A DNA stretch of 64,000 nucleotides. Origin: an uncultured Dehalococcoidales bacterium. Lineage in GTDB: Bacteria > Chloroflexota > Dehalococcoidia > GIF9 > UBA5629. Under the pieces are notes generated by a model. It saw nothing but the letters and a program-made list of their open reading frames with translations, was not told the DNA's origin and did not search any database. Shown here piece after piece: positions 6,809 through 54,464 of the stretch; position 1 is the first letter of the stretch; each line of letters starts with the position of its first letter. The position numbers were made by a program, and so were the translations under genes. The stretch is taken from positions 7,206 through 71,205 of the forward strand of contig CAZKOL010000003.1 of assembly GCA_964554375.1 (NCBI GenBank), in the 5' to 3' direction.

Positions 6809-6832
6809 TATTGCAGCAATCCAAAGTGGTAA

Positions 6833-7534: not shown

Positions 7535-7563
7535 CTCCCTTTCCTCTGTTTATAGTTATTTTT

Positions 7564-7818: not shown

Positions 7819-7870
7819 AGTGTACTGCCCTCCCATTCCTTTCGCTCACGATGGAAAATAAAATCATTCA

Positions 7871-8986: not shown

Positions 8987-9094
8987 GCGGTTCTCCGCCA
9001 AACAAACCCGGCTAGATAATTAGCCTTGATCTTACTTATTATTCTATATCCATTTCCTTCATTGCAGACTACATGATAGTTCATAATAGATAAT

Positions 9095-32192: not shown

Positions 32193-32245
32193 CTTAAGAC
32201 TCGTACACCCTTCAAGCGCCTTTATTATACTATGCTGAAAAATGT

Positions 32246-32306
32246 TGGGACGGGCCTTCAGGCCTGACCGCGTATCGGGCGCAGCTAAAGCAACGCCCCT
32301 ACGTCC
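32246..32306. repeat. REP-like palindromic intergenic repeat
   Basis: GGGACGGGCCTTCAGGCCTGACCGCG plus CGGGCGCAGCTAAAGCAACGCCCCTAC. Confidence 0.6.
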
Positions 32307-32382
32307 ATTAATTATATTATACGTTGGCCCTTCAAGTCTGATATCATATTTAGCGCCCAAATTTCATTTAAAGAAGAGTGAC

Positions 32383-33639: not shown

Positions 33640-33731
33640 ATTCAGCGCAGTCTTGATAAACATCGCGAATAAATGTAAAATGGCTGCGTGTTTTCAAGGC
33701 AGAAATCAAGCGGTGTGACAGGCTGATATCA

Positions 33732-34988: not shown

Positions 34989-34992
34989 TTTA

Positions 34993-36057: not shown

Positions 36058-36672
36058 GATGCCCAGGCTGTCCACCATGGGCAGTTCCCTGTAATCGCCG
36101 CTCCCCAGCGCCAGCTTGTACACCTCGAAAGGCGCCTGACCACCTTTGGCAGGGTCGGGGTAGATGTCGTGAAAAACCAGGAATCCGCCCGGCAGCAGGT
36201 GCGGCGACCAGCAGCGGTAGTCCGATAGAGATGTCTGGTAGCTGTGCCCACCGTCGATAAAGACCAGGCCGAGTGGCGTCGCCCAGTTCCTGGCGGCGAC
36301 TCCGGACTGTGTGACCATGGGAACGACATTGTCCTCGAGGCCTGCTTTTTTCAAAGTGTCCTGCAGCAGGGGGAGACTATTTATGATGCCCTTGCGGCTG
36401 TCGAAGAGCTCGGGGTCGAAATACATCTGGCCGGGCTGCTGTTCCTCAGATCCGCGGTGGTGGTCTATGGTGAAAAGCGTGCTGTCAGCTCTTTTACAGG
36501 CTTCTCCCAAATATACGGCGGATTTGCCGCAGAAGCTGCCTATCTCCAGGCAGGGGCCGAGCGCGCAGGCTTCCAGTCCCAGCTCATACAGCCTGACGCC
36601 TTCGTCCTCGGCCAGAAAACCCTTGACTCCCGAGGCCAGCGCCGCAATCTTGCTGATAATAGCGTCCGTCAT
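36010..36672 (-). CDS. class I SAM-dependent methyltransferase (Methyltransf_24/TylF-like)
   Basis: LEIGSFCGKSAVYL and FIDGGHSYQTSLSDYRCWSPHLLPGGFLVFHDI. Start moved to MTDAIISK because the longer ORF-track N-terminus runs through a REP copy. Confidence 0.55.
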   Translation of the reverse strand: MTDAIISKIAALASGVKGFLAEDEGVRLYELGLEACALGPCLEIGSFCGKSAVYLGEACKRADSTLFTIDHHRGSEEQQPGQMYFDPELFDSRKGIINSLPLLQDTLKKAGLEDNVVPMVTQSGVAARNWATPLGLVFIDGGHSYQTSLSDYRCWSPHLLPGGFLVFHDIYPDPAKGGQAPFEVYKLALGSGDYRELPMVDSLGILRKHYTVVIEKKVCC

Positions 36673-36686
36673 CTCTTTTCCGTATT

Positions 36687-36719
36687 CGCGGGCGCAGCTA
36701 AAGCGACGCCCCTGCATCG
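36687..36719. repeat. REP-like repeat (X module only)
   Basis: CGCGGGCGCAGCTAAAGCGACGCCCCTGCATCG. Confidence 0.55.
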
Positions 36720-36721
36720 TA

Positions 36722-39700: not shown

Positions 39701-40087
39701 GGCGATGATGAAGTTTGCATTATCAGGCGCTACTGCTATATTCCATACCGCCCTGTTGCCGGCTGCTGTAGTAAGGTTGGTGTTGATTGAGGAGAGCCAA
39801 TTATATCCGGCGTCGGTGGATTTATACAGGTTCATACTTGTTACAGAGCTATTGTCGGTGCTGACAGCGTAAAAGGTGCGGTTGTCCGGTCCCAGCGCCA
39901 GGTCGTTTATGCCGCAGGTGCGTATGAACATGCCGTTGGAACCGTTCCAGGGTGTATCCACCACGCTCCAGGCCAGCGTCCTGCTGGTGGCTGCGCTGCT
40001 TTGGACGCAGGGAACAAGCAAGCTAATTAAAGCTAAAATGGAAAGGACAAGAATAAACGGGTATGGCCGGCGTACAATTCTCATCAA
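36722..40087 (-). CDS. large cell-surface BNR/Asp-box repeat protein with C-terminal TM anchor
   Basis: 1121 aa. N-terminal signal peptide and multiple S-x-D-x-G-x-T-W boxes (YSTDGGTTWNIV, YSADSGDTWTAV, SMDSGSTWNQIG, KSTDAGYNWLSS). S/T/G/N-rich, with Ig/FN3-like C-terminal modules and a final hydrophobic anchor followed by RRRDL. Confidence 0.6.
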   Translation of the reverse strand: MMRIVRRPYPFILVLSILALISLLVPCVQSSAATSRTLAWSVVDTPWNGSNGMFIRTCGINDLALGPDNRTFYAVSTDNSSVTSMNLYKSTDAGYNWLSSINTNLTTAAGNRAVWNIAVAPDNANFIIAVIDDAVLPAAAGPRIAYYSTDGGTTWNIVAPGTGMTLNPDEYISCLDISKYNSSGQSRDIAIGTRRVAGLGGSVWTRTYSSTFSGAWVNQDPPGGWTAVTSVKFSPDYISDQTMAVIAFTAPATAALHLGKHDTTLNTTQWDNAAGYAAYPVLLGGYLATNIIRTGIELPSDYVGTDSSLRGCFVNVFDNTTASAVFYISPTPTTFTITPPIQAASGQRISSIAYTGTNATGILLAGEATASAARAMANVWQSSNAQATCSGCVTWLKSDSLKSPTGGGNTGDGGTGRANVLLAWSSDGSRAYCGTSSENSTLGGTGWAPGQWPLSKLTKAQSDESAFQYSMDSGSTWNQIGIINTTISVLSDVAAVEKPEGSAVVGNSTLYLSSLNTDNTTPGIDSVWRSASDPLGRLWERTFTLPSSDSGAILRLAPSDTASSTISNVVVFADLGTDNITYSADSGDTWTAVLAGTIVKDISLLDESSMYVLDDYNVRKLSQSGAAWQTVKRLNTNMLAPAHMVCNPVKDSSDKELVFVGSEGNADTSVAWADFSAIIPQFTVLKDLPMQGNVHVAVDDLYDSNKNIYAGIDDTITNADGLIYRWTMDTSTNWDPLDPIDRGFYGICMLNSVLYGAWNTNIDPTLSSSGADRTLEARVRVPPAPQWDQLIDGIPQTNLVQFTREPTSLHISSNTYNTLWAIDNRPYNFTTKVGCLWQFVDSVAKLGPWPTAPAPGSLIGADPVTGRSQQVDFKWRPLKDIYGYDLLIAKDVNFTLPLTQQLQMTPVDDVTGSWIVTPADQEAPSCWISPGVLEVGRSYYWRVRGSRSWKDTPIHSPWSATLFFSVRPGFMVTSEYMGPTLLTPVDGICSNCLPPIRFSWSPIKNARMYQFTLARDAQLQDVIVQENTETTAFELKSPLPFSTPYFWQVKAVAPVISDPSPVGTFTLSENITQPQKQPDARTKSGQVPAASNFWIWIIIVIVVVLLLLINAYVVISRRRDL

Positions 40088-40349: not shown

Positions 40350-42047
40350 ATGGCAAACAATCCGGATAATCCCAGAGCTAAAGGTGGCGCCCCTGGTGGG
40401 GCAACTCAGCAGGGCATTGCCAAGCTGAACGTCCAGTATGCGGCGCCCATGCCGCAGGCCCTGGGATTGATACCAGAGGACGTGGCCAAAAGGTACAAGG
40501 TGCTGCCATTGGCGCTGGAGAACAACACGCTGCGGATTTTTATGGCCAATCCAAGCGATGTACTGACCATTGAAAACCTGTCGATTTATACCAGGAGGCG
40601 CATTGAGCCGGTGGCCGCCTCAGAAGCGGATATCAAGGAAGGCATTGAGTACAATTATCGAGCTCTAAAGGATGCTTCCAGACTGGACGCCGGGACGGGC
40701 TTAGACACAGGACCGGTAAACACGCTCCCTCCGCGCACAGCGCCGCGTGTAGCTGGGCCCGCGGCACCCCCCGCTGCTACGGGGACTGCCGGTACCGCTG
40801 GTCCGGTCGTTCCTGCACAAGCCGCCGGCATATTACCCCTGCCCCCATATGACGATAGAGTAATTCCACCTGAGATAACCAGCGATTCTCCCATAGCTCA
40901 CCAGCTCGATAAGATGCTGGACGAAGCCGTCAAGGCCAGAGCATCCGATGTACACATCGAGCCGGATGACGACAGGCTGCGTATACGCTACAGGATCGAT
41001 GGCATATTGCATGAAGTGGCCTCGCTGCCCCTGACCGTGCACCACGGTCTCATTTCGCGTATAAAAATCCTCTCAGATATGAATATCGCTGATCACAGGC
41101 GGCCCCAGGATGGCCAGTTCTCCTTTGATTCAGATAATAAATATATAGATGTTCGTGTGGCTACCGTGAATACGGTTAATGGCGAGATGGCTGTATTGCG
41201 TCTGCTGGACAAATCGGTGGCAGCGATGGCTCTGCCCCAGGTCGGGTTTTTGCGTGAGAGCCAGGAGATGTTTGAGCAGATGCTTATGATGCCATATGGC
41301 ATGGTGCTTATCAGCGGCCCCACCGGCGCGGGCAAGACGACCACACTTTATGCCGCCGTCAATTCCCTGGATCGTGTAGGCAAGAATATAATAACCGTGG
41401 AGGACCCTGTCGAATATCGCTTTTCAGACATTAACCAGATACAGGTTAATGTAAAGGCCGGCCTGACCTTTGCCAGCGGGCTGCGCGCCATAGTGAGGCT
41501 CGACCCCGATGTCATCCTGGTGGGCGAAATCCGCGACAGCGAGACAGCTCTGATAGCCGTCCAATCGGCCCTGACCGGACATCTCGTGCTGTCTTCAGTG
41601 CACGCCAACGACACGGTGGGTGCAGTCTTTCGCCTGATTGACCTCGGGGTAGAACCCTTCCTGATCAGTTCAGCCCTGATTGGTATCGTGGCCCAGCGTA
41701 TGGTGCGGCGAGTCTGCCCTCATTGTGCTCGCAAGGTGACGGCGCCACTGGTAGAGCAGCTGGCCTATGAAAAAGAGATGGGAGAGGCGAGGGCGGAATT
41801 CATGTACGGCGAAGGATGCAAGGTGTGCGTGCATACCGGCTATCTCGGCCGCACTGCTATATTCGAGATACTGACAATAACCGATAATATTCGCAGGATG
41901 ATAGTGGGCGGTTCGAGCAACACCGATATACGGGCCGCCGCACTCAGCGAAGGACTGGTGCCCATCGCCCGCTACGGCATGCTGCAGGCCAAGGCCGGCA
42001 TTACCACACCCTACGAGGTACTGCGAAACGCCTATACCATTTCCTGA
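40350..42047 (+). CDS. pilB: type IV pilus assembly ATPase PilB/GspE
   Basis: N-terminal GSPII_E_N/MshEN-like domain, Walker A GPTGAGKTTT and a tetracysteine motif (CPHCAR...CKVC). Confidence 0.85.
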   Translation: MANNPDNPRAKGGAPGGATQQGIAKLNVQYAAPMPQALGLIPEDVAKRYKVLPLALENNTLRIFMANPSDVLTIENLSIYTRRRIEPVAASEADIKEGIEYNYRALKDASRLDAGTGLDTGPVNTLPPRTAPRVAGPAAPPAATGTAGTAGPVVPAQAAGILPLPPYDDRVIPPEITSDSPIAHQLDKMLDEAVKARASDVHIEPDDDRLRIRYRIDGILHEVASLPLTVHHGLISRIKILSDMNIADHRRPQDGQFSFDSDNKYIDVRVATVNTVNGEMAVLRLLDKSVAAMALPQVGFLRESQEMFEQMLMMPYGMVLISGPTGAGKTTTLYAAVNSLDRVGKNIITVEDPVEYRFSDINQIQVNVKAGLTFASGLRAIVRLDPDVILVGEIRDSETALIAVQSALTGHLVLSSVHANDTVGAVFRLIDLGVEPFLISSALIGIVAQRMVRRVCPHCARKVTAPLVEQLAYEKEMGEARAEFMYGEGCKVCVHTGYLGRTAIFEILTITDNIRRMIVGGSSNTDIRAAALSEGLVPIARYGMLQAKAGITTPYEVLRNAYTIS

Positions 42048-42062
42048 GCGTTGATCAATCCT

Positions 42063-42106
42063 GCGACGTAGGGGCGTACCTCCAGGTGCGCCCGCATTAG
42101 GGTAGT
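42063..42106. repeat. REP-like repeat (X module, inverted orientation)
   Basis: GTAGGGGCGTACCTCCAGGTGCGCCCG, between pilB and pilC. Confidence 0.55.
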
Positions 42107-42199
42107 ACGATAGTACTATTATAATTTTGACCAAGGGTCTATTTACTATTCATCCATGTAATGTATCATTATAAAGGGATACTATCTTCGGGAAAATAG

Positions 42200-43414
42200 A
42201 TGGATTACGAGTATATCGGCTACACCGCTGACAGGCAGGTGGTCAAGGGAAAGATCGATGCTTCCGGGGAGAAGGATGCGGAGGACAGGCTGGCGGCAAG
42301 CGGTTACCAGATACTTAGCCTGAAAGCAAAAGGAGGGTCTATCATAACAGGTATGCCCTCACTGTTCGAGAAGGGGGCCAAGCAGGAGGAGATCGTACTC
42401 TTCTCCCGGCAGCTTGCGCTGCTGCTGGAATCGGGCGTGGGCATTGTGCAGAGTCTTGACCTGCTTAAGGCCCAGACCACCAACAAAGCCTTTGCCGGGA
42501 TGCTGGACACCATAATATCAGACCTGCGCGCAGGCAACCCGCTATCGGCTACGCTGGAAAAGCATCCCAGGGCGTTCAACAGGATGTACTGCAAGATGAT
42601 AGCCGTGGGTGAGCAAACCGGCCAGCTGGAGAGCGTGCTGCGCAATCTTGCCGGCTATGCCGAACAGTCCACCGCTGCAACGCGCAAGATAAGGCAGGCC
42701 ATGACCTACCCCATCATAGTGCTGGTTTTGGCAGTGGCCGTGGGTTTTCTGGCTGTTACATTTATATTGCCGCCCATCATGGACATGTTCAAAACCCTGG
42801 GCGGCGAGCTTCCCTTTATGACTGTGATGCTCATTGGTTTCGTCACCTTCATGGGCAGCTACGGTGTATATGTGATGCTGGCTGTGCTGGCCGGCTGCCT
42901 GCTTCTCTACATGTATACCAGGACACCAGATGGTGCACTGCAAAAGGACCGCTTCTTACTGAAAATACCCATGATGGGCAGGCTTAACCTGATAAATACA
43001 TTGGCGCGCATCTGCCGCAGCATCACCATACTTTTTCGTTCCGGCCTGCCTCTGCCCGAGATACTTAAGCTCACGGCCGAGTCGAGCGGCAACATGGTCA
43101 TCTCCAATGCGCTGATGGACGTGGAACAGGATATCATCAAGGGGGAGGGACTGGCCTCGGCCATGGGACGGCATCCCGAGTTTCTGCCGCTCATGGTAGA
43201 GATGACCCGTGTGGGTGAGGAGACGGGAAACCTGGACAATACGCTCACCATCGTGGCCGATAGCTTCGAGATCGAGGCTGCCGACAAGCTGACGGCTGTG
43301 CTTGGTATGATCGAACCGGTCATGACCATCGTTATAGGGCTGGCTGTAGGCTTCCTGGCGTTATCCATTTTTGTACCGCTTTACTCCGGCATGAGCCTGG
43401 TAGGAGGTGGATGA
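42200..43414 (+). CDS. pilC: type IV pilus platform protein PilC/GspF
   Basis: Two GspF repeats and three TM segments. Confidence 0.85.
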   Translation: MDYEYIGYTADRQVVKGKIDASGEKDAEDRLAASGYQILSLKAKGGSIITGMPSLFEKGAKQEEIVLFSRQLALLLESGVGIVQSLDLLKAQTTNKAFAGMLDTIISDLRAGNPLSATLEKHPRAFNRMYCKMIAVGEQTGQLESVLRNLAGYAEQSTAATRKIRQAMTYPIIVLVLAVAVGFLAVTFILPPIMDMFKTLGGELPFMTVMLIGFVTFMGSYGVYVMLAVLAGCLLLYMYTRTPDGALQKDRFLLKIPMMGRLNLINTLARICRSITILFRSGLPLPEILKLTAESSGNMVISNALMDVEQDIIKGEGLASAMGRHPEFLPLMVEMTRVGEETGNLDNTLTIVADSFEIEAADKLTAVLGMIEPVMTIVIGLAVGFLALSIFVPLYSGMSLVGGG

Positions 43415-43839
43415 TGATGGCCAATTTGCGGATGCACAGGTCAGAAAGGGGTGTCTCTCTGGCAGAGGTATTAGTTGCCCTTGTCATCCTTGCTTTTGTG
43501 GGTGTAGCGGTCATCGCCGGTGTTTTTACGTCTATCAAAAGCAATGAAACTGCTCGTACCCGTATTTCTGCCGAAAGTCTGGCACGCTCTGAAATCGAAT
43601 TTGTTTACTCACAGCCATATGTAGCTACGAACTGGACTTATATCCTGCCAGATAATCCATCATATCCGGCAGGATGGGATGCAACCCATAGCATGCCGGA
43701 GGGCTATGCTGGCTATTTAATCACGGTGTCTGCAAGCGAGAATGATTCTGGCACAAAGAGTAGTAAACAAAAAATAACCGCAGCCGTGAGTTATAACGGC
43801 AGCCCGGTTTTAACTATAGTCACATACCAGGCGCAATGA
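43411..43839 (+). CDS. prepilin-type N-terminal cleavage/methylation domain protein (minor pilin)
   Basis: The class III signal pattern G-VSLAEVLVALVIL has Glu at +5. Start overlaps the pilC stop. Confidence 0.55.
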   Translation: MMMANLRMHRSERGVSLAEVLVALVILAFVGVAVIAGVFTSIKSNETARTRISAESLARSEIEFVYSQPYVATNWTYILPDNPSYPAGWDATHSMPEGYAGYLITVSASENDSGTKSSKQKITAAVSYNGSPVLTIVTYQAQ

Positions 43840-43875
43840 TTAACTAATTCGCATAATGACAGAAGGCTATTGTTA

Positions 43876-44391
43876 ATGGGTTATAAGAAACAAAACGGGT
43901 TTACCCTGGTCGAGCTTCTCGTCATAATAGGAATCCTCGGGTTCCTTTCTGCTGCAATAGCCATGACTTTCAGTGTGGTAACGAGGACCAGCACCATGGC
44001 AATGGGGCAGACCAGGGCATTGAGCCAGGTGAACCAGGCAGGAAGCTGGATCTCGCGGGACGTGGAAAACGCCGTAGCCAGCACTGTGCAGCCAACCACA
44101 GGAAATATACTATGTTCGATGCAAAGTTCGGTGTGGAACGGCTCGACTTTTGGTGCGGAAAATATAACATATATGATTAATAATGGGGTACTAACGCGAA
44201 CCAGCCAGCTCGGCATCAATCCCGCAAATACCATTAACGTTGCGCAGTTCATTGAAGGCCCGAGTGCTGACACCACGTATTTTTCGTCCGAAAACACTAC
44301 AAACAAATATTTCGTATTGACCGTAAAGGCTAATTACAACAACTCCGTTTTTACCAGGGTTTACAAGATGAAACAGGTGCTTACTCAGTAA
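43876..44391 (+). CDS. prepilin-type N-terminal cleavage/methylation domain protein (minor pilin)
   Basis: KKQNG-FTLVELLVIIGIL is a canonical type IV prepilin leader. Start placed at the ATG after an AGAAGG RBS. Confidence 0.65.
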   Translation: MGYKKQNGFTLVELLVIIGILGFLSAAIAMTFSVVTRTSTMAMGQTRALSQVNQAGSWISRDVENAVASTVQPTTGNILCSMQSSVWNGSTFGAENITYMINNGVLTRTSQLGINPANTINVAQFIEGPSADTTYFSSENTTNKYFVLTVKANYNNSVFTRVYKMKQVLTQ

Positions 44392-44409
44392 GCAGGAGGG
44401 CATCTCATC

Positions 44410-45729
44410 ATGTTTAATAAATCGATATGGAAGAGGTTAAAAGGCCAATCGGGCATGGCGTTGCCGATGGCCCTGATACTGCTGGTCGTGGCATCATTCA
44501 TAGTTGTGCCCGGCCTGTGGGCTACAGGCAGCATGCTTAAGATTAACCATGATATGGAAAATGATAACACGGCATATTATGCTGCTAAGGCGGGTATTGC
44601 AGATGCTTACTGGAGATTTAAAAATCCTGAGATGGCTCGATCTTTTCCTTATCCGCTGGATAATCCAGTAAACAACATGACCGTAAATGTCTCGCAGGTA
44701 AGTAAGACAGTGGTGGGTTCTACCACGACTTATGTTATCAAGTCGGCTGCCACACTTAACAGTAAACTATGGAGCACTGTCTATGCTTCGATTGATGTTA
44801 ACTCCGGAAGCGGATATCCTTTTGATTACGCCATTGCCAGCACGGACGGGAACATCGAGATTCACTGCAATGCCCATGTAAATTCTATACCGACTAATGG
44901 CCAGGCTAATGTATTTGCCAATGGTGAACTCAATGTGGATACCTGCCTCTCTGCCGATGTAAATGGTACAGGATATTACACAACTGGTACACCGGATTGC
45001 CGGCGTATCACAGGTGGGTGCACAAAAAAGACAGCGGTTGTATTCCAAGAGCTGGATATATCATGGTATTGGGCCCAGGCAGAAAGAGGTAACGCCTTGC
45101 CCAGCCCACCAGCATGCTGGCCAACGAAAACCTGCAGCATACCTACCACGTATGGAGCCACAACCTATACAATTTACGGCGGTACTGCAGCAAGTCCCAC
45201 TTACCTGGGGCAAGAAGGCAAGACTTCATACATTGACGGTAATCTGGAACTTGATCATCAATCGGGTGGCAAAGAGCGAATTATATTGCGAGGTGTAGTA
45301 TGGGTAAACGGTAACATCAGCATTGAAGGTGGTACCTACATCTATACGGACCCGAGCCAACAATGTTATTTACTGGCGCATGGGGGTGCGGTGGATCACC
45401 ATAGTATAACGTTGGTCACAAATTCTAAAATAATGTCTACCACAAACAACTTGAATCTAATATCTGACAATGGTGATATTACGATTGAAAGCGGTGTTGA
45501 TGGCCCGACTATAGGCGCCCCGGTGCTCCTCGGTGTCTTCTATGCTCCAAACGGCGCAATTATAGTTAATTCTAACTCCGACGTAATCGCCAGTGCAGTC
45601 CTCGGAAAAAGCGTCAAATTAGAAAGTAACGTTACTATCAATTACGATACAGCCCTTCGAGATAATCCGCCTGATGGTTTTGAAATTAACGTTACCTCCG
45701 TAAAGATGACGGGGTACAGTGGTCAGTAG
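44410..45729 (+). CDS. large pilus-associated protein (PilX/PilY-like candidate)
   Basis: 439 aa with an N-terminal hydrophobic segment. N/T/G-rich and embedded in the pilus operon. No firm family match. Confidence 0.3.
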   Translation: MFNKSIWKRLKGQSGMALPMALILLVVASFIVVPGLWATGSMLKINHDMENDNTAYYAAKAGIADAYWRFKNPEMARSFPYPLDNPVNNMTVNVSQVSKTVVGSTTTYVIKSAATLNSKLWSTVYASIDVNSGSGYPFDYAIASTDGNIEIHCNAHVNSIPTNGQANVFANGELNVDTCLSADVNGTGYYTTGTPDCRRITGGCTKKTAVVFQELDISWYWAQAERGNALPSPPACWPTKTCSIPTTYGATTYTIYGGTAASPTYLGQEGKTSYIDGNLELDHQSGGKERIILRGVVWVNGNISIEGGTYIYTDPSQQCYLLAHGGAVDHHSITLVTNSKIMSTTNNLNLISDNGDITIESGVDGPTIGAPVLLGVFYAPNGAIIVNSNSDVIASAVLGKSVKLESNVTINYDTALRDNPPDGFEINVTSVKMTGYSGQ

Positions 45730-45812
45730 AATATTGTTCAGCTTGCTGATGCTGTGTTGAATACGGTAGGTTTTCATGTATAATAGGAATAAATACCTGA
45801 AGAATAAAGAAT

Positions 45813-46409
45813 GTGGCATCGCCTGTAGAAGCACCTAAAGCAACCAAGAGTAATATATCGCAGCGCCTGCCGCGCCTCAGTACCTCCGTCTGGCTGATCC
45901 TCATACTGGCCCTCTTTTTAATCGTCATGGCGCCAATGGTCACGGGCTATATTGAGCAGGTATCACAGCAGGCTGCAATACAGTTGCAGATAGACCAGGT
46001 CCAATCGCAGATCGACGAATTGAATGCCAAAATGGCATCCCTGACCACTGCTACGACCGAGGCGGCCAGGATGAAGGCTGAACTGGAAGTGGCCAAATTG
46101 CAGTATAAAAATATCGGCGATAACGCCGAGGTTTCGCAGATCATCATGGCGCTGGCATGGGACTATGACATCACCATCACCAGTATGACGGTCTCCCAGG
46201 CGATAAACAAGATGCTGGGCACGGACTACCCCGTGCTCACCTACTCTCTCAGCCTGTCTGGCCAGGTGGCCAATTTTCAGAATTTCCTGATTGCTGCGGG
46301 TAACAGGTTGCCATCATGCCAGTTCACCAGCGTTTCCATCACGCCGGCCACGGTGGAAGGGGAACTGGATAACGCCTCTGTAAATTTACAGGTTTACTGC
46401 AATGAATGA
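45813..46409 (+). CDS. PilO/GspM-like pilus alignment protein
   Basis: N-terminal TM, a coiled-coil (QIDQVQSQIDELNAKMASL) and a C-terminal alpha/beta domain. GTG start, weak RBS. Confidence 0.4.
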   Translation: MASPVEAPKATKSNISQRLPRLSTSVWLILILALFLIVMAPMVTGYIEQVSQQAAIQLQIDQVQSQIDELNAKMASLTTATTEAARMKAELEVAKLQYKNIGDNAEVSQIIMALAWDYDITITSMTVSQAINKMLGTDYPVLTYSLSLSGQVANFQNFLIAAGNRLPSCQFTSVSITPATVEGELDNASVNLQVYCNE

Positions 46410-46430
46410 CCTGAGGTACAGCTGCACGAC

Positions 46431-47327
46431 GTGATTACAATCAATATCGAAGACAGCTCGGTGAAAATCACCTCGGTAAAGGGGAAACGGGTGGTCTTTG
46501 CGGCGGAAGCCCCGCTGGAGGCAGACTGGGTACAGAACGGCATTGTTTTTGAGAAAGCGCACGTCAGCCAGGTGATCAGCATGGTGCTGGCACAGTATAA
46601 AATACGTGAAAAGGAGGCGGTGGCCAGCGTCAGTGGCTTACACTCGATCTACAGGGTTGTGTACGTGCCCAAGCTGAACCGTGAATTGCTGGCGGAAGCG
46701 GCCAGGAAGGAGATGGCGCGGGCTGTAGCAGTACCCCTTTCATCGATCTATACGTCATGGGCCGACGTGAAGATATCGGACAGTGAGATTGCCCTCTGCC
46801 TGGTGGGCCTTCCCTTCGATAACGTCAATTCGGTAATCGAGACAATCAAGCTCTCCGGTATGCAATTGAAATACCTTGAACTCAAACCGCTGGCAGTGTC
46901 CCGCGTTATCGATGAAAAAACCGCTATCGTGATTAACGTGCAGGCAAATTGCTTCGATCTGACGGTTATGAACAACGGCATCCCCGAAATAGTCCGCAGC
47001 CTGCCTTTTCAGGGTGGAGCTGCGATGAGCGAAGGGGATAAGGCCAGGATGGTCAAGGAAGAAGTGGACCGGACCATCAATTTCTACAATTCCGGCCACC
47101 CGAATAGTCCGCTGGGTACGCAAACATATTGCATAGTTAGCGGCATACTACGCGAGACCCTATCCATGGTGATGGGGTACCCGGTTAAGCCGGCCCCGGC
47201 CTTGCTAACCTATCCGCCGGGGCAGGACGGCAACGATTTTATTGTCAACAGCGGCCTGGCGTTGCGCACTATAAATCCATTGACGAAGGTAGATATAAAT
47301 TGTATTGCCGAGCGCGGCGCCGGCTGA
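46431..47327 (+). CDS. pilM: type IV pilus assembly protein PilM (actin-like ATPase fold)
   Basis: PilM-like length and blocks; sits next to the PilN/O-like genes. Confidence 0.65.
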   Translation: MITINIEDSSVKITSVKGKRVVFAAEAPLEADWVQNGIVFEKAHVSQVISMVLAQYKIREKEAVASVSGLHSIYRVVYVPKLNRELLAEAARKEMARAVAVPLSSIYTSWADVKISDSEIALCLVGLPFDNVNSVIETIKLSGMQLKYLELKPLAVSRVIDEKTAIVINVQANCFDLTVMNNGIPEIVRSLPFQGGAAMSEGDKARMVKEEVDRTINFYNSGHPNSPLGTQTYCIVSGILRETLSMVMGYPVKPAPALLTYPPGQDGNDFIVNSGLALRTINPLTKVDINCIAERGAG

Positions 47328-47841
47328 CAGGCCGGCTGCGGCAGGCTTAAACGCGGCCCCGCTGATCGCCCTGGGCGTCTGCGCTGCGCTGGTTCTGGGC
47401 ACGTGGGTAATGAGCGGCATGGCGGAAAAACAAACGGCCGATATGCAATTGCTGCTGAGCCAGAAGGCCGCCCAGCTTGGCAGCATGCAAAAACAGTACC
47501 GTGACGTAATAGACTTGACTACTAAAGCGAGCGATGCTGATCAGCAGATGCTGGCCCGGCTTAACGCGCCCATCAAGTATCTTGCTGAACAGAGGGGCAT
47601 GGTAAATCGCGACCTCGGGCAGGTTTTTGCAGCCCTGCCGGCTACCGTGTACCTGACAAGTGTTACCGATGACGGGAATCTCATACAGGTGCAGGGCTCG
47701 GCCCCCAGCGAAGAGATAATACTCAATTATGCCCGTGACCTGAGGAACTCGGGGATGTTCAGACTGGTATTGATAAGCTCGGTTGGCGCCAGCACTTACA
47801 CGGAAGTGACTTTTACCATTCAGTTGACTGTAAAACAGTGA
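47305..47841 (+). CDS. PilN-like pilus alignment protein
   Basis: N-terminal TM, then a coiled-coil and a C-terminal domain. The start codon (a TTG in the ORF track) is uncertain. Confidence 0.4.
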   Translation: MPSAAPADRPAAAGLNAAPLIALGVCAALVLGTWVMSGMAEKQTADMQLLLSQKAAQLGSMQKQYRDVIDLTTKASDADQQMLARLNAPIKYLAEQRGMVNRDLGQVFAALPATVYLTSVTDDGNLIQVQGSAPSEEIILNYARDLRNSGMFRLVLISSVGASTYTEVTFTIQLTVKQ

Positions 47842-47862
47842 ACCCGGGAAATATCAAATAAG

Positions 47863-48927
47863 ATGCATATCGACGAGTTATTGAAGCTGGCGGGGGAGAG
47901 CAGGGCCTCGGACCTGCACCTTATCGTGGGCGTGCCGCCCCTCTTCCGCATCGACGGTGAACTGAGACCTGCCGAAGGCCTGCCCGTGATGAAGCACGAG
48001 GATATCGACCATCTATTCAACCAGATCGCGCCTGCACGACAGCGGGACATCTTTTCCAAGGAGCTCGAGGTCGACTTTGCCTATTCCCTGCAGAGTGGTG
48101 GGCGGGGCAGGTGCAACGCCTGCTGGCAACAGGGATCAATCAGCCTTGCCGTACGCCTGCTGCCACAGCGCATACCGACAGTAGAAGACCTTGGCCTGCC
48201 CGATATGTGCAAGGAATTGATCAACAGGCCCCGGGGACTGATATTGGTCACCGGCCCAACGGGTTCAGGTAAGAGCACCAGCATCGCCGCCATGCTCAAT
48301 CACCTCAACAACACCATGAAGCGCTACATCGTAACCATCGAGGATCCCGTTGAGTACGTGCACCCCAATATAAAATGCGCTTTTTCTCAAAGGGAGTTGG
48401 AGCAGGACACGCACTCCTTTGTCAACGCCCTCAAGTACGTGCTCAGGCAGGACCCTGATGTGATACTGGTGGGCGAAATGCGCGACCTCGAAACGGCGTC
48501 GGCCGTGATGACCGTGGCCGAGACCGGCCACCTGGTATTATCCACGGGCCATGCTCCCAGCGCAGCCCAGTCGGTGGAAAGGATAGTGGATATGTTTCCT
48601 CCGCATGAGAGGAGCATGGCGCAGGCCCGCCTGGCGTCGACGCTTCTCGCTGTCTTCAGCCAGGTATTGGTGCCGCGCATCAGCGGAGGCAGGGTGGCGG
48701 CGGTGGAGATAATGCTGGCCAACGCGGCGGTCAAGAACCTGATACGCGAGGACAAACCCTTCCTAATACCAAACACCATACGCACCAGCTCCAATGTTGG
48801 CATGAAAACGCTGGATGACGCACTGGTCGACCTGTACAGGAAGGGGATTATCACAAGGGAGTACGTATTCGCCTTTTGCCAGGACGCTGAGGATGTGAAC
48901 AAGCTTCTGAGGGCGGCAAACATCTGA
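47863..48927 (+). CDS. pilT: twitching-motility retraction ATPase PilT
   Basis: Walker A GPTGSGKST and the overall length. Confidence 0.85.
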   Translation: MHIDELLKLAGESRASDLHLIVGVPPLFRIDGELRPAEGLPVMKHEDIDHLFNQIAPARQRDIFSKELEVDFAYSLQSGGRGRCNACWQQGSISLAVRLLPQRIPTVEDLGLPDMCKELINRPRGLILVTGPTGSGKSTSIAAMLNHLNNTMKRYIVTIEDPVEYVHPNIKCAFSQRELEQDTHSFVNALKYVLRQDPDVILVGEMRDLETASAVMTVAETGHLVLSTGHAPSAAQSVERIVDMFPPHERSMAQARLASTLLAVFSQVLVPRISGGRVAAVEIMLANAAVKNLIREDKPFLIPNTIRTSSNVGMKTLDDALVDLYRKGIITREYVFAFCQDAEDVNKLLRAANI

Positions 48928-48945
48928 TTAAAACGGAGAATAAAA

Positions 48946-48983
48946 AGAGGGGCTCGAAATCGATTTCGAGCCCCTCTTTTTTT
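48946..48983. terminator. bidirectional rho-independent terminator between pilT and pilA
   Basis: Perfect 15-bp inverted repeat GAGGGGCTCGAAATC/GATTTCGAGCCCCTC, flanked by AAAAA on one side and TTTTTTT on the other. Confidence 0.6.
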
Positions 48984-49003
48984 AGCACAGTATCAATAAT
49001 GAT

Positions 49004-49336
49004 TTAGGGGCAGGCGTCTTGGGTTATGGCGCCGGTGCTCTGGTCGACCGTATATGTGCACTTAGGTGCGCTTAAGAGGTAATCTTTCACACTGCTATTA
49101 GTAGCTCCCGCAGTTATCGGGGTTGCTGGAGGCGTGCCATTATGCTCATACATGTAGGCAGCTACTGCGGTCTGGATGTTTGCCATATCAGTGGCATTGG
49201 CCTCGCTCTCTCCTGAGCCGATAAACTTGGTCACATTGAGGACGACCACCGCTGCTAATGTGCCCAATATAGCTATGACCACCAGTAACTCGATGAGCGT
49301 GAAACCCTTATTACCGTACTTGAAAAACTTTTTCAT
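49004..49336 (-). CDS. pilA: type IV major pilin
   Basis: The KGFTLIELLVVIAILG prepilin leader and a GGAGGG RBS. The C-terminus is S/T-rich and carries a disulfide pair (C...C). Confidence 0.75.
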   Translation of the reverse strand: MKKFFKYGNKGFTLIELLVVIAILGTLAAVVVLNVTKFIGSGESEANATDMANIQTAVAAYMYEHNGTPPATPITAGATNSSVKDYLLSAPKCTYTVDQSTGAITQDACP

Positions 49337-49548
49337 ATTTCCCTCCATATTCTATTTTGCCTGCCCGTACCGACCTCACAGGGCTCTTTTATTTACACAT
49401 TATTTATACATTATCTATATCGCAAGGTCAATAGCCTGATGGTAATCCCTTGGCAGTACTTAAGTACCGCTCTTGCACATAAACCAGTTTATGTTATATC
49501 TTAGCAAAGATAATGGACGTGACAAAAGTCATAAGGTCAGTGGCCTGA

Positions 49549-52014
49549 ATGCGCACCGATAATAATCCGGCCGATACCACACGGTCCGGTAGGTTGGATA
49601 TTGCATTGGAGGCTACATGGCTGCTGCTCATATTTTTGCTACCGGTCTATTTTAACCCGCTTGGCTACCAGGCCTTCTATTTTGCCAAGGCGCTGTTGCT
49701 GCAATTTGGGGTTTGCCTGCTGTTAGGTCTCTATTTAGCCCGCTGGTTTCTTGCAGGCCATCATGAGGCTCCGTTCAATCTGTTATTGGCTCTCAGACGA
49801 TCATCACTGCAGGTCGCAGTAATAGTATTCGGCCTGTTGTGGGCGGTTTCGACTGTATTATCCATCATGCCCGAGGCAAGTTTCTGGGGCAGCCTTGCGC
49901 GCAAGAACGGCTTGAGCACCTTAATAGCCTGGGTCGTATTATTTTTCATCGTGGCCCAGGGCGTGCGCAATAAGTCGCAGCTTTATAGGGCGCTGACTGT
50001 ACTGATTGTTTCTGCCGGTATAGTATCTCTATTCGGTATCCTGGAGTTAGCTGATCCCCGGCTGTTAGCATGGCTTTCAAGAAACGGCCGGGTATCGGCA
50101 ACCGATGGCAATCCGCTTTCTTTGAGTTGCTTTATAGCTATGGTGCTTCCCGCTAATCTGGCCCTGATTACAATAGTCTGGTATGGCCCGGATGGGGGCA
50201 TTAAAAAGGCGGTTAAAGTTACCGGATTTACACTGGTATTCACCCTGCAAATGATCTGCCTGTACCTTGCTCAGTATTCCATAACCATACTGCTTTTCAT
50301 ACCCGGCATGTTCATTTATTTTCTGCTGACAGGAATTTCTTTAAGAAGAAAGGCCACCATTGCTTTGAGCGCAGTAGCGCTTGCGATGCTCCTGCTATTG
50401 GCGGCTATTATTGTCGGCCAGACGCTGATGCCGCGGACGGTTGATACAGCTGTTGCCCCGGCTACCCCGGATACTACAGTGGCAGGGCAGGCCGGCTTGA
50501 ACACACTTGGTTTGAGAGCAAAGCAATGGACCTGCGCAATAAGCGTTGTCCTTGATTCGCCTGAAGTGCCGTTGTATGACAATAATCACCATTTTTTACG
50601 GAGGTGGACGGGTTATGGCCCGGAAATGTTTGTGATAGCTTCACAGGCTGACTATCCTCCTGCTATGAAGAGTAATGACACCTATAATTCCATGTTACTT
50701 GGCCAACCGGAAAACCATTACCTTTACCTAGCCGCCACCGTAGGGCTGCTTGGACTGGCTGCATTCCTGGCTGTTATTTTAATATTCTTTTATCTGGGAT
50801 TGAGGTTGCTGCGCAAATCCCGGGAGAAGGACGTGATTTACCTGGCGTCTGCTTTTATGGCAGGCATTGCACAGTATTGCGTCCATATACTGTTTAACCC
50901 GACTGCCATCCTGCCGGAATTCATGTTCTGGTTGATGTTAGCTTTAATGGCTGCCATGACCAGGATGGAGATGACCGGGGGTGATGAACTTGATGCGTTT
51001 GCCAGTTATGGATCAGGGATAAAGAGATCATCGGAAAAGGCAGACAGCGGAAAGCTCCGGAAAGCCACTGCGGTCTTTGTGGTAATCGTATTCATAGGGG
51101 TGGGGTTTAGCCTGACTTTCAGCCCTGCACTGGCAGATATGAAATTGAATAGTGCTTTGAGGACTTGGTCAAGCGATTCAAACAAGACTATGGCAAACTT
51201 GGCCGAGGCTGCGAACCTCGAACCGGGCGAATCCGTTTACTATGGTTACGTCGGGGCATATGCATTTAAGCTGGCTGTCGCTTCGAATGATGCCGCAGAA
51301 AAATCCAAACTTATGGCCTTGAGCACTGCAGCCTATGGAGCTGCCGGTAAGCGTGAGCCATACCTGGCGTACTGGAGCTGTACCACAGGTGATGTCTATA
51401 CATACTGGGCCAACCATGATGATCCTGACAAGTGGACGGATGCGCTTCGTTATTATAAGCGTGCGGATATTCTTATGCCGGGCAACGCGGTCATCCTCAA
51501 CAAATGGGCGCTGGCCCTGATGTTGAAAGGGGATTACGCAGAGGCGGGCCGAAAGCTGTCCGAGTCACGCAGCGCAGATGGAGAATGGGTTCCTACGACT
51601 TACTATACCGGGCTTCTTGATATATACGAGCACTGCTACTGCACCGCCGGTTATTGCTTCGTGTCCCCGGTAGAGAGGAAGATCGAGAATGTGGGGCCTT
51701 ATATCAGCTTCTGTAGTCAGCTTGCTCTGTATGAGGATCTTGGCAAAGTAGTGGATGGGTTAAAAATATATGACGGTTGCCACCCGGGGGACTGGATCGG
51801 GCAGGCGCTGCTGGGCATTGCTGAAGTGTACGATAATAAGTTGGCAGCCGCGGAGGACTCTTTCCGCAGGTCTGCCCGTAATGTACCTCCGGAGCACGCC
51901 GGTATGCTTAAGGAAATAATTACACGTATGGGTAAGGATAATCCGGGCTTCCAGCTGATGGCGCAGGATATAGCCGACTCGCTTAATGTAAAAATACCCG
52001 GCAATACCAGGTAG
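49549..52014 (+). CDS. O-antigen-ligase (Wzy_C)-like polytopic membrane protein with C-terminal TPR domain; candidate pilin O-glycosyltransferase
   Basis: About 12 predicted TM helices over the first 470 aa with Wzy_C-like topology, followed by a soluble TPR-like region. Lies divergent to pilA and upstream of pilD. Confidence 0.5.
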   Translation: MRTDNNPADTTRSGRLDIALEATWLLLIFLLPVYFNPLGYQAFYFAKALLLQFGVCLLLGLYLARWFLAGHHEAPFNLLLALRRSSLQVAVIVFGLLWAVSTVLSIMPEASFWGSLARKNGLSTLIAWVVLFFIVAQGVRNKSQLYRALTVLIVSAGIVSLFGILELADPRLLAWLSRNGRVSATDGNPLSLSCFIAMVLPANLALITIVWYGPDGGIKKAVKVTGFTLVFTLQMICLYLAQYSITILLFIPGMFIYFLLTGISLRRKATIALSAVALAMLLLLAAIIVGQTLMPRTVDTAVAPATPDTTVAGQAGLNTLGLRAKQWTCAISVVLDSPEVPLYDNNHHFLRRWTGYGPEMFVIASQADYPPAMKSNDTYNSMLLGQPENHYLYLAATVGLLGLAAFLAVILIFFYLGLRLLRKSREKDVIYLASAFMAGIAQYCVHILFNPTAILPEFMFWLMLALMAAMTRMEMTGGDELDAFASYGSGIKRSSEKADSGKLRKATAVFVVIVFIGVGFSLTFSPALADMKLNSALRTWSSDSNKTMANLAEAANLEPGESVYYGYVGAYAFKLAVASNDAAEKSKLMALSTAAYGAAGKREPYLAYWSCTTGDVYTYWANHDDPDKWTDALRYYKRADILMPGNAVILNKWALALMLKGDYAEAGRKLSESRSADGEWVPTTYYTGLLDIYEHCYCTAGYCFVSPVERKIENVGPYISFCSQLALYEDLGKVVDGLKIYDGCHPGDWIGQALLGIAEVYDNKLAAAEDSFRRSARNVPPEHAGMLKEIITRMGKDNPGFQLMAQDIADSLNVKIPGNTR

Positions 52015-52016
52015 TA

Positions 52017-52814
52017 TTGACAAGGATTGAATTGGAAATAATTGTTGCCGCCATCTTTTTTCTGCTCGGCATCAGCGTGGGCAGCTTCCTCAACGTGGTG
52101 GCCGACCGCGTTCCTGCCGGCGAATCCATTCTCCGCCCTCCCTCCCACTGTTTCAGTTGCGGCCACCTTTTAGAGCCGCGCGATCTCTTCCCCATCGTCA
52201 GCTACCTGTTGTTGAGGGGGAAGTGCCGATACTGCGGGAAGACTATTCCCATGCGCTCCGTGCTGGTCGAGCTGGCCAGCGGGCTGCTCTTTGTAATGGC
52301 GCTTACCATATTCGGGCTGAGCTGGCAGACGCTGAGCGCCATTATTTTCGGGTCGTTGTTCATAGTCCTTTTCTTAACCGATTTGGAGCGAGGCCTGCTG
52401 CCGCACGTTATCGTCTACCCCGGCACTGCCACAGCCCTGGTCTTCGCGGCGCTCAGGCCGCTCACGGGCACGACACCGGGCCTGTTAAGCTCCCTGGCCG
52501 GGTTGGGTGTAAGCTATGGCATCTTCTTAATCATCTGGGCCGTGCCCAGGATGTTCAAGAAAGACATCATCGGTTTCGGGGATGTGGGTATAGCAGGGTT
52601 GATTGGCGCGTCAGTCGGATACCCCACCGCCCTGGTGGCATTATCAATTGGTATCCTGGCCGGCGGCCTGGCCGCCGCCATGCTGGCGCTATTCAAGGTT
52701 AAGAAACTCAGCGAACCGCTGCAGTTCGGCATGTTTTTAGCCTTCGGTGGCATGATGGCGCTCTTCTGCGGGCAGGACATCGTAGATGCCCTGCGGCAAC
52801 TTCTCACGCTGTGA
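52017..52814 (+). CDS. pilD: prepilin peptidase (A24 family)
   Basis: N-terminal CxxC...CxxC zinc motif (CFSCGHL...CRYCGK) and a C-terminal peptidase A24 TM domain (FGDVGIAGLIGA). Confidence 0.8.
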   Translation: MTRIELEIIVAAIFFLLGISVGSFLNVVADRVPAGESILRPPSHCFSCGHLLEPRDLFPIVSYLLLRGKCRYCGKTIPMRSVLVELASGLLFVMALTIFGLSWQTLSAIIFGSLFIVLFLTDLERGLLPHVIVYPGTATALVFAALRPLTGTTPGLLSSLAGLGVSYGIFLIIWAVPRMFKKDIIGFGDVGIAGLIGASVGYPTALVALSIGILAGGLAAAMLALFKVKKLSEPLQFGMFLAFGGMMALFCGQDIVDALRQLLTL

Positions 52815-53042: not shown

Positions 53043-54464
53043 CTATTCCAGCACTACTATAGAGGGAAGATTGCGGTATTTGCCGCCCATGTCCAGACCG
53101 TAGCCGACCACGAACTCATCAGGTATCTCGAAACCCACGTAGTCCAGGTGCACATCTATCAGCCTCCGCACCCGCTTATCCAGCAGGGTGCAAACTTTCA
53201 GGCTGGCCGGCTTGCGTGCAGACAGGTTATTTAGCACATAGTTCAGTGTCATGCCTGTGTCCACGATGTCCTCCACCATCAGCACGTGTTTGTTCTCGAT
53301 ATCGGTATCCAGGTCTTTCATTATCCTTACTGAGAGGTCTGCTTTGTCCGCCGGCGTGGATATGGCCATAAAATCCACTGTCACCGGTATGGATATATTG
53401 AGCATAAGGTCGGACAGAAAGCACACAACACCCTTCAGGATGCCGATCAGGACAAGCTCCTGGCCCTGGTAATCCCTCGATATCTGCTTGGCCAGCAATT
53501 TGACGCGTCGCTGGATCTGGGTCTTGTTGAACAGGTAGCGCTGCACACCCGTCATTTTGCTCTCGCCCAGGGGGATGAAACCGTGCCTGGCAAACAATTT
53601 CAAATAGTCTCCCTTGTTGAGCAGCTTGATACTGATATCGGGGTATAGCTCCTTGAGGTGGCGAACTTTGCGGTTTTTCTCCGTGATGAGGCTCTGCCTG
53701 GACGTGGTAAGCTCGATATACAGGTCTATCTCGGGCAGGTAGAAGTCAGGGGTGAACATCTCCGTGATCCGGTTATCCTGCGAGGAAAGCGGGAAGGAGC
53801 GCGGTTCGTACAGCCACTCCACCTGGTAGAAATCTAAAAGGCGGGCGAATTCCTCCTCGCTGGGGTGCCCGAAATTAACGGGCCTGATGGGCGATAGCGG
53901 GAGGTCGGAAAAGCTGGTCAGCCTCTTCTGCTGCGTGATGTTGGCCTGGTGGCGGTTGCTGAGATCCTGGGCAAGCTCTATCTTCTCAAGAGTCAACGAT
54001 AGTATGTTGGCCACTGTGGAGATGAAGTCCTTCTCGTTGGGCTTGAAGTGCCGCTTCTCCCGTGTGTAAACCCTTATCTCGCCGATCACCTCGCCATGCT
54101 GTAGGATGGGCGCCCCCAGCAGGGACTTGAGGTTCTCGCGGGCGGCATGCTCCGGGTACTGGGTGCGCTTATCCGAGTAAATATCCTCTACAGAAACTAT
54201 CTTGCCGTCGAGTATGTCAGGGTAGCTTTTACGGGCATTGATGGCCCCCTTGCGCAGGTACAGGTCGCTCAGACCCCAGGCGCCTATGATATCCAGGTAT
54301 TCCCTGCGCGGGTTGAGCAGCATAACGGCGCAGCCGGAGGCATGCAAACCCCTGGCGGCGCCGGCAGCGATGGTGCTGACCAGCTTTTTAAACGATAGGC
54401 TATCGTTGGCAGCCTTGACTATTTGCTTATAAGCAAGGGAATAGCGATTCTCAGTGGCATCCAT
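53043..54464 (-). CDS. hpt: GAF sensor domain - unknown middle domain - hypoxanthine/guanine phosphoribosyltransferase fusion
   Basis: N-terminal GAF of about 170 aa. The C-terminal 175 aa are a full Hpt (VEDIVDTGMTL PRPP loop, GYGLDMGGKYRNLP). A roughly 150 aa middle segment carries a DUF559/PD-(D/E)xK-like motif, TPDFYLPEIDLYIELT. Confidence 0.6.
   Translation of the reverse strand: MDATENRYSLAYKQIVKAANDSLSFKKLVSTIAAGAARGLHASGCAVMLLNPRREYLDIIGAWGLSDLYLRKGAINARKSYPDILDGKIVSVEDIYSDKRTQYPEHAARENLKSLLGAPILQHGEVIGEIRVYTREKRHFKPNEKDFISTVANILSLTLEKIELAQDLSNRHQANITQQKRLTSFSDLPLSPIRPVNFGHPSEEEFARLLDFYQVEWLYEPRSFPLSSQDNRITEMFTPDFYLPEIDLYIELTTSRQSLITEKNRKVRHLKELYPDISIKLLNKGDYLKLFARHGFIPLGESKMTGVQRYLFNKTQIQRRVKLLAKQISRDYQGQELVLIGILKGVVCFLSDLMLNISIPVTVDFMAISTPADKADLSVRIMKDLDTDIENKHVLMVEDIVDTGMTLNYVLNNLSARKPASLKVCTLLDKRVRRLIDVHLDYVGFEIPDEFVVGYGLDMGGKYRNLPSIVVLE

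Follow-up and report, generated by a model that had tools for sequence, protein, structure and literature searches.

Why does a type IV pilus locus carry, between the gene of its major pilin and that of its prepilin peptidase, a gene for a large membrane protein of the O-antigen ligase type? The question was raised by a DNA stretch of 64,000 nucleotides (the window) from an uncultured Dehalococcoidales bacterium (GIF9; UBA5629; assembly GCA_964554375.1, contig CAZKOL010000003.1, positions 7,206-71,205). Three open reading frames (ORFs) make up the region concerned, namely a prepilin of 114 amino acids (pilA, 49004-49348, minus strand), a protein of 821 amino acids (49549-52014, plus strand) combining a Wzy_C domain with tetratricopeptide repeats (TPR), and the prepilin peptidase PilD of 265 amino acids (52017-52814, plus strand). 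The explanation that we favour, at a probability of roughly 50%, is that the 821-residue protein is an accessory glycan transferase of the WaaL fold (GT-C_B), dedicated to the pilus locus, which would O-glycosylate the pilin by means of a Glu388/His390 site and an external TPR domain that binds the acceptor.

Fold, topology and active site of the 821-residue protein

About 100 full-length homologs were found (E < 1e-30; 32 clusters at 50% identity), all of them in metagenome-assembled genomes (MAGs) of Dehalococcoidia/Chloroflexota. The window protein matched the Pfam family Wzy_C (PF04932) over residues 234-407 with 32.8 bits, which is marginal when taken alone (gathering score 31.7), and the same family was recognised in 37 of 38 homologs with a best E of 5e-13. 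The repeats were weakly visible in a scan of the single sequence; a profile of the family matched OGT, SPINDLY and consensus TPR structures over residues 522-814 (E about 4e-10). An AlphaFold2 model based on the 38 homologs reached a mean predicted local distance difference test score (pLDDT) of 83 and a predicted template modelling score (pTM) of 0.81, and residues 1-520 alone gave a pTM of 0.83.

The helices of this model together with the positive-inside pattern predict 13 transmembrane (TM) helices, which are a WaaL-like core of 12 (residues 1-475; 49549-50973) with its N-terminus in the cytoplasm and one additional linker helix. Within the core, a large extracytoplasmic catalytic loop of 96 residues (294-389; 50428-50715) connects TM9 and TM10, so that both the fold and the placement of a large outer loop before TM10 are those of WaaL. 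Behind the core, a Lys/Arg-rich cytoplasmic linker (residues about 476-505) runs into the 13th helix (residues 502-530, 51052-51138; modelled helix 502-538, hydropathy peak 506-524), which returns the chain to the outside. There it forms a TPR superhelix of about seven to eight helical hairpins (residues 544-815; 51178-51993), for which pLDDT was mostly above 90 and the top Foldseek matches were TPR proteins. The TPR domain is predicted to lie on the side of the catalytic loop, as are R181, S244, R323, R351 and E388. Searches of the PDB with a profile of the N-terminal domain gave no match even at E <= 10. A narrower profile of the loop reached WaaL of Cupriavidus metallidurans (CmWaaL) at a marginal E of 0.072; WaaL was the sole match, and no solved structure of an O-oligosaccharyltransferase (O-OTase) turned up in the PDB searches. 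An NCBIfam scan of the 821-residue protein matched no model.

These results bear out the initial annotation in that a Wzy_C-like protein with an external TPR tail is encoded between pilA and pilD. Its count of 12 TM helices holds for the core, the model having 13 in all. The annotation had also made its proposal depend on whether the protein has the Wzy_C catalytic loop, and this loop is present and highly conserved, with two of the three canonical residues replaced.

Alignments over a range of 32-76% identity identified R181, R323, W327, R351, G355-Y-G-P-E359, P387 and N389 as conserved residues on the outer side. Because the motifs of the loop (R323, W327, R351 and GYGPE) are invariant over this range, the sequences argue for a working active site. 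R323 corresponds to R265 of CmWaaL and, according to hhalign, to R288 of E. coli WaaL (EcWaaL); it was found in 38 of 38 homologs and stands at the place of the pyrophosphate-binding arginine (R298 in PglL). The EcWaaL alignment had an hhalign probability of 1.7% and was used only where the CmWaaL alignment and motif inspection agreed with it, that is, for R323 and position 388. At the latter position, the family motif P-[E/H]-N-x-Y-L-Y-L aligns with 'AH313ND' of CmWaaL and 'LH338NE' of EcWaaL. The window protein reads P-E-N-H-Y-L-Y-L, with Glu388 in place of the catalytic histidine (H338 in EcWaaL, H313 in CmWaaL) and a histidine two residues on (codons 388-390, 50710-50718). The canonical histidine is needed in WaaL, in PglL (H349), in PglS (H324A inactive) and in TfpM (H286A inactive) (PMC3643930, PMC12800693, PMC9829042).

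We therefore followed this position through the family. P-E-N was present in 60 of 96 homologs, with His at the +2 position in 59 and Tyr in one, and the remaining 36 had P-H-N-x, where x is His, Asp, Gln or Asn. An Anaerolineae/Caldilineae outgroup of about 1100 amino acids, likewise built of Wzy_C and TPR, carries S-H-N-E, and 91 scorable broader relatives had His in 88 cases, Glu in two (both from this subfamily) and Gln in one. Since the outgroup and the broader relatives have His, Glu388 is by comparison of these sequences a derived state. Its near-constant accompaniment by His390 (59 of 60) makes the site look remodelled and not decayed. A further difference concerns the second canonical arginine (R215 in EcWaaL, R224 in PglL), whose equivalent here is Ser244, nearly invariant in the family. 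This assignment, which pairs EcWaaL 'LTQTRATLL' with the family sequence 'LAQYSITIL', comes from the low-probability hhalign result as a single alignment and is less secure than that of R323 or position 388.

The pilus locus and its relatives

With the 821-residue protein as query, 41 loci from species-representative genomes were found, 40 of which could be classified. The gene was linked to pilus genes in 36 of these 40, including one locus (L010) in which the pilin is partly masked yet present. The order PilB, PilC, minor pilins, DUF7305 protein, a small protein of 198 amino acids in the window, PilM, PilN and PilT, followed by the pilin on the minus strand and by the Wzy_C/TPR gene and PilD on the plus strand, recurred at protein identities from 70% down to 32%. 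The Glu388 state was confined to such copies (26 of 26 Glu-variant loci), and these loci keep the Wzy_C/TPR gene adjacent to pilD. Ten pilus-linked loci retain the canonical His. In the His-variant clade another gene stands between the Wzy_C/TPR gene and pilD (L021, 12757-13656; L026, 12620-13504); we considered it as a glycan gene and rejected this idea, as it encodes a ThiF-family (E1-like) adenylyltransferase.

As a reverse, unbiased check, metagenomes were searched with PilD as seed. This search yielded one more locus in which PilD follows a Wzy_C/TPR gene (L048). In a locus of a very close relative (L047, 237-2925; FtsZ 99% and ribonucleotide reductase 87% identical), PilB is followed directly by PilD and the block from pilC to the Wzy_C/TPR gene is gone as a unit, apparently by a clean deletion of pilus genes that left pilB and pilD behind. 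Seven more distant loci (L050, L053, L056, L059, L060, L064 and L100; PilD 40-48% identical) have the pilin directly upstream of pilD with no gene between them. Because these distant relatives have pilA next to pilD without it, the Wzy_C/TPR gene is an accessory of this pilus system, which fits a modifying enzyme, as TfpO is in Pseudomonas, and not a core part of the machine.

Four members of the family were not linked to pilus genes. One of them (L038) is a paralog whose neighbours encode a Wzx-type flippase, a NeuB-type nonulosonate synthase, a GNAT protein, an aminotransferase and a glycosyltransferase of the GT4 family. A second (L023) lies with a GT4 gene, a DUF2206 membrane protein and a PseB-like dehydratase. 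The other two (L032 and L040) adjoin unrelated housekeeping genes, and L032 shares its MAG with the pilus-linked L031. The outgroup gene of the Anaerolineae is followed directly by Glycos_transf_4, a polyprenyl-phosphate sugar-phosphate transferase of the WecA/MraY type, and is flanked by GT4 genes. These gene contexts link the wider family to the assembly of lipid-linked glycans; a copy appears to have been moved into the pilus locus by one lineage of the Dehalococcoidia. A lipid-linked glycan donor is likely for the window protein as well, because the unlinked paralogs and the outgroup sit in glycan-synthesis loci.

In the window itself, the rest of the type IV pilus cluster occupies 40350-48927 on the plus strand and encodes PilB and PilC (40350-43414), two minor pilins, the DUF7305 protein, the 198-residue protein, PilM, PilN and PilT. 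Apart from the 198-residue protein, these were recognised by Pfam and NCBIfam scans (PilT by TIGR01420 with 419 bits), and the same order is found in at least 20 related loci. PilD matched A24_N_bact with 107 bits and Peptidase_A24 with 45 bits. The same scans revealed neither a secretin gene between pilB and pilD nor a pilotin gene in the locus. The 198-residue protein (45813-46409) occupies the position of PilO; the window copy had no significant Pfam match, and its ortholog in L043 showed a weak match to HpsJ (hormogonium polysaccharide secretion).

The product of pilA has the N_methyl/TIGR02532 motif with GFxxxE, and orthologous pilins stand at the same position in related loci. Translation probably starts at the second ATG (49336), because GGAGGG lies 6 nt upstream of it and homologs begin with MKKFF. 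This start gives a leader of 10 residues ahead of G|FTLIE and a mature pilin of about 99 amino acids, which contains the peptide ...HNGTPPATPITAGATNSSVK... The stretch TPPATPITAGATNSS, rich in Ser, Thr and Pro, occupies residues 72-86 of 114 inside the protein and belongs to a hypervariable loop after the N-terminal helix, and the protein ends in a Cys-bracketed loop with the terminal sequence ...TQDACP. The initial annotation, which had described the pilin C-terminus as Ser/Thr-rich, was thus mistaken on this point. The other pilins adjoining a Wzy_C/TPR gene are alike in this respect: they have 91-105 amino acids in their mature form and an indel-rich, hypervariable S/T/P/A loop after the conserved 'AAYMYDNxG' that ends the N-terminal helix, and 23 of 25 end in a residue other than Ser or Thr (...YP, ...CP or ...VK). 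Most of the orthologous loops are rich in S/T/P/A without a conserved position, and the pilins of loci that have no Wzy_C/TPR gene are S/T-rich too. Seven related loci (L003, 5026-5942; L005, L012, L015, L017, L024 and L035) carry two tandem, near-identical major pilin genes upstream of the Wzy_C/TPR gene, where the window has one.

The initial annotation had also emphasised that the gene adjoins pilA. This linkage is conserved, as described above; pilA is nevertheless divergent, lying on the opposite strand at a distance of about 200 bp, and it is pilD to which the Wzy_C/TPR gene is coupled. With pilD beginning 3 nt past the stop codon of the Wzy_C/TPR gene, both genes probably share one transcript. 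A bidirectional intrinsic terminator (48941-48984; ΔG -29.2 and -29.6 kcal/mol and z -6.95 and -6.40 for the two strands) separates the convergent pilT and pilA and makes pilA a transcription unit of its own; it consists of a perfect 32-nt palindrome with A5 on one side and T6 on the other. This terminator was missing from the list of a consensus terminator scan. The divergent control region between pilA and the Wzy_C/TPR-pilD unit (49349-49548) contains the block GGTCAATAG (49426-49434) and a 12-bp palindrome GTACTTAAGTAC (49456-49467). Together with a sigma-70-like element on the minus strand, they recur in loci whose proteins share only 45-75% identity, which suggests shared regulation of pilA and the Wzy_C/TPR gene, probably through an operator that some regulator would bind for both. 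The sigma-70-like element (49525-49498), about 150 nt upstream of the pilA start, is the putative pilA promoter, and its position would imply a pilA transcript with a long 5' untranslated region.

Further genes surround the locus. Directly 3' of pilD, a gene for a 473-residue fusion of a GAF domain and a phosphoribosyltransferase (53043-54464) is found at the same place in most related loci (60-92% identity) and is followed by genes for class II ribonucleotide reductase, NrdR, FtsZ and FtsA. Just 5' of pilB (32242-40087) lie two GT4 genes (32242-34988), a gene for a 358-residue protein without a family match and, on the minus strand, one for a protein of 1121 amino acids with a sub-threshold Sortilin/Vps10 (BNR-like) match. 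A DDE transposase gene (IS240/rve-type, 28631-29695) lies in an island of 38% GC content at 28-30 kb, the rest of the window having 41-60%. A large alpha-glucan/trehalose set at 111-20290 comprises a GlgE-type maltosyltransferase, a TreS-like amylase, a TreT-like glycosyltransferase, MalQ, a branching enzyme and an isoamylase-like protein, and is broken at 4955-9001 by genes for a KaiC-like ATPase, a response regulator-KaiC fusion and a histidine kinase with MS-channel and PAS domains. An Rfam scan of the whole window gave no match.

Proposed function and alternative explanations

How might such a protein modify a pilin? A glycan would be assembled in the cytoplasm on a polyprenyl-pyrophosphate carrier and then flipped outward, where R323, R351 and R181 might bind the pyrophosphate of the carrier on the outer face of the 12-TM core. 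The outward TPR superhelix, tethered beside the catalytic loop through TM13, would hold the acceptor protein. The Glu388/His390 pair, in place of a single catalytic His, could then activate a Ser/Thr (or Tyr) hydroxyl of the acceptor, and the glycan would be transferred en bloc. From the linkage of the genes we infer that the most probable acceptor is the major pilin, which is anchored in the membrane and whose gene lies 200 bp away in divergent orientation, and that its exposed, hypervariable S/T/P/A loop would receive the glycan before or during assembly.

Several observations weigh against this proposal. The glycosylation of the pilin, or of any protein, is something we infer from sequence and locus, and the Pfam family Wzy_C includes polymerases as well. 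Neither the catalytic His nor, with the uncertainty of the alignment given above, the second canonical Arg is present in the window protein. The existence of the four unlinked family members means that the fold is not tied to pilins as such. The 64-kb window contains no initiating phosphoglycosyltransferase and no flippase gene, and its glycosyltransferases that could serve glycan assembly are only the two GT4 genes, for which no counterparts were seen in the examined flanks of related loci. Finally, no acceptor residue and no composition separates the pilins of loci with the Wzy_C/TPR gene from those without it, or those of the Glu clade from those of the His clade.

A first alternative is that the protein is a general O-OTase or an envelope glycan ligase. 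Its main acceptors would then be, for example, proteins of the S-layer or elsewhere on the surface, a lipid or a polymer of the wall, and its place in the locus would reflect co-expression with pilD. Neisseria PglL, for instance, glycosylates many proteins besides PilE. In favour of this, no acceptor residue is conserved in the variable loop of the adjacent pilins, and transcription of the gene is tied to pilD and not to pilA. Paralogs and outgroup members have no pilus genes around them and are found among glycan genes or in unrelated surroundings, and WsfB, the precedent nearest in architecture, has an S-layer protein as its acceptor (PMC2943079). We nevertheless consider a general enzyme unlikely. 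In 36 of 40 loci the position of the gene between pilA and pilD has persisted in spite of deep divergence, the gene is missing along with the pilus genes in L047, and the Glu388 variant is restricted to pilus-linked copies. The MAG with one linked and one unlinked copy (L031 and L032) suggests that the linked copy is specialised.

It is quite improbable, in our view, that the protein helps to make a surface polysaccharide coupled to the pilus, either as polymerase of the Wzy type or as assembly factor; examples would be cyanobacterial Hps-like secretion or a pilus-bound matrix polymer, with the TPR domain as export scaffold. O-antigen polymerases do fall under Wzy_C, the depositors of 7tpj call their structure a 'polymerase/ligase', and the outgroup loci are rich in GT4 genes. 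TPR domains are described as polysaccharide-export scaffolds in a reference cited in PMC2943079. Yet the pilus locus encodes no Wzz co-polymerase, export protein or flippase, and has PilT and a normal major pilin, as expected of a retractile pilus. The match of the 198-residue protein's ortholog to HpsJ, which would favour a polymerase, is weak, and the sole strong structural match is a proven ligase whose arginine binding undecaprenyl pyrophosphate (Und-PP) is conserved here. The replacement of two of the three catalytic residues known from WaaL and PglL (Glu388 and Ser244) could also be taken to mean that the protein is an inactive pseudo-enzyme that a monoderm pilus retains for structure or assembly, and in which the TPR domain docks pilins or guides the fibre through the envelope. 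Secretin and pilotin are missing from the locus, and the TPR proteins PilF/PilW serve as pilus assembly factors in diderms. Against such decay, conservation within the protein is highest in the extracytoplasmic loop (R323, R351, GYGPE, P387 and N389), Glu388 is paired with His390 throughout nearly all of its clade, one third of the family, including the ten pilus-linked loci, retains the canonical His, and the gene is dispensable in related pilus loci. We regard a pseudo-enzyme as very improbable and retain pilin O-glycosylation as the preferred explanation.

New in these data are the conserved pilus linkage in an uncultured monoderm lineage and the replacement of the histidine, from which the functional proposals are derived. 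Dehalococcoidia of this kind are abundant in sediments and peat, and to our knowledge the surface biology of the uncultured members is almost unknown. If the proposal is correct, pilin O-glycosylation by WaaL-fold enzymes extends from a few Proteobacteria to these monoderms, and the 'essential' catalytic His of the WaaL fold can be replaced by a Glu/His pair. The latter would bear on the mechanism of WaaL and the O-OTases, in which the His could serve either as a base or as a ligand of the phosphate. The working enzymes of bioconjugate-vaccine production are O-OTases too, and one that is guided by TPR, with another active site and another way of choosing its acceptor, could be a useful new tool. 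A preprint reports that glycosylated pilins block pilus-specific phages (bioRxiv 10.1101/150227). We speculate that a role in phage defence could accord with the accessory distribution of the gene, with the hypervariable loop of the pilin and with the tandem duplication of pilin genes.

Relation to ligases and pilin O-oligosaccharyltransferases

WaaL (C. metallidurans, 7TPG/7TPJ, and E. coli) shares with the window protein the 12-TM topology with a cytoplasmic N-terminus, the outer TM9-TM10 loop, the Wzy_C domain, the Und-PP-binding Arg and the position of the H-N-x-x-L motif at the start of TM10. The two differ in that identity is 15-17% and that the window protein has Glu388, Ser244, an extra TM13 and an external TPR domain of 270 residues. 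WaaL is encoded in the locus of the lipopolysaccharide (LPS) core, whereas here the gene lies in a pilus locus of the Dehalococcoidia, a lineage without LPS.

S-layer O-OTases are known from monoderm hosts. WsfB of Paenibacillus alvei and the WsaA/WsaB pair of Geobacillus stearothermophilus are presumed to transfer lipid-linked glycans to a surface protein, and WsfB, with Wzy_C followed by a C-terminal TPR domain, has the closest architecture, a likeness drawn from its description and not from its sequence (PMC2943079). The gene of WsfB nevertheless belongs to a locus for S-layer glycans, and the residues that the enzyme modifies are tyrosines of the S-layer protein, whereas here the gene stands between pilA and pilD.

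The initial annotation had proposed an enzyme of the PglL/TfpO type, and neither assignment could be upheld. TfpO (PilO) and TfpM of Pseudomonas, Acinetobacter and Moraxella resemble the window protein in having Wzy_C, in being encoded next to the major pilin gene and in being accessory, as they accompany only some pilin alleles; together with PglS, they are known to be encoded beside their pilin substrates (PMC12645811, PMC9829042). They are, however, proteins of 420-470 amino acids without TPR, encoded on the same strand directly 3' of pilA, while the window protein has 821 residues and its gene diverges from pilA and precedes pilD. TfpO and TfpM modify a C-terminal Ser/Thr of the pilin and need the His; the present pilin has ...CP as its end, and the His is replaced by Glu. 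Membership was rejected on size, gene orientation and acceptor position, and the C-termini of the pilins, as predicted from their sequences, exclude the TfpO/TfpM mode.

PglL of Neisseria and PglS of Acinetobacter baylyi combine a WaaL-like core with a periplasmic C-terminal domain and modify an internal Ser in exposed low-complexity segments. The window pilin has a segment of this kind, in a loop without a conserved position, and pilins of loci lacking the gene are S/T-rich too. These families are defined by the PglL_A (PF15864) and Wzy_C_2 domains (PMC3643930, PMC12645811). At E <= 0.01, neither PglL_A nor Wzy_C_2 (PF11846) was detected in any of the 38 homologs (0/38) or in the window protein, and membership was rejected. 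PglL and PglS are moreover enzymes of 520-600 amino acids that lack repeat domains and use a catalytic His (H349 and H324), in contrast to the 821 residues and the 270-residue TPR domain found here. We also dismissed an arabinosyltransferase of the TfpW type, which has a different fold, belongs to a different family and found no support in the searches, as well as a pilotin of the PilF/PilW type, because such pilotins are lipoproteins of small size from diderms, whereas the TPR domain found here is joined to the core of an enzyme.

A last parallel concerns design only. In OGT, a glycosyltransferase module is joined to a TPR superhelix that selects the acceptor, and the TPR profile of our family matched the repeats of OGT best. 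The eukaryotic TMTC1-4 follow the same logic of TPR-guided O-glycosylation. The catalytic folds and donors of OGT and TMTC1-4 are unrelated to those considered here.

In the literature searched we found no description of a Wzy_C/TPR gene in pilus loci of Chloroflexota, which does not prove that none exists. The 821-residue protein is outside the four described families of pilin-glycosylating enzymes, PglL, PglS, TfpO and TfpM. We tentatively suggest that it may represent a fifth family of pilin-dedicated O-OTases, the first from monoderm uncultured Chloroflexota, in which catalysis would rely on Glu388/His390 and the TPR superhelix would select the pilin.

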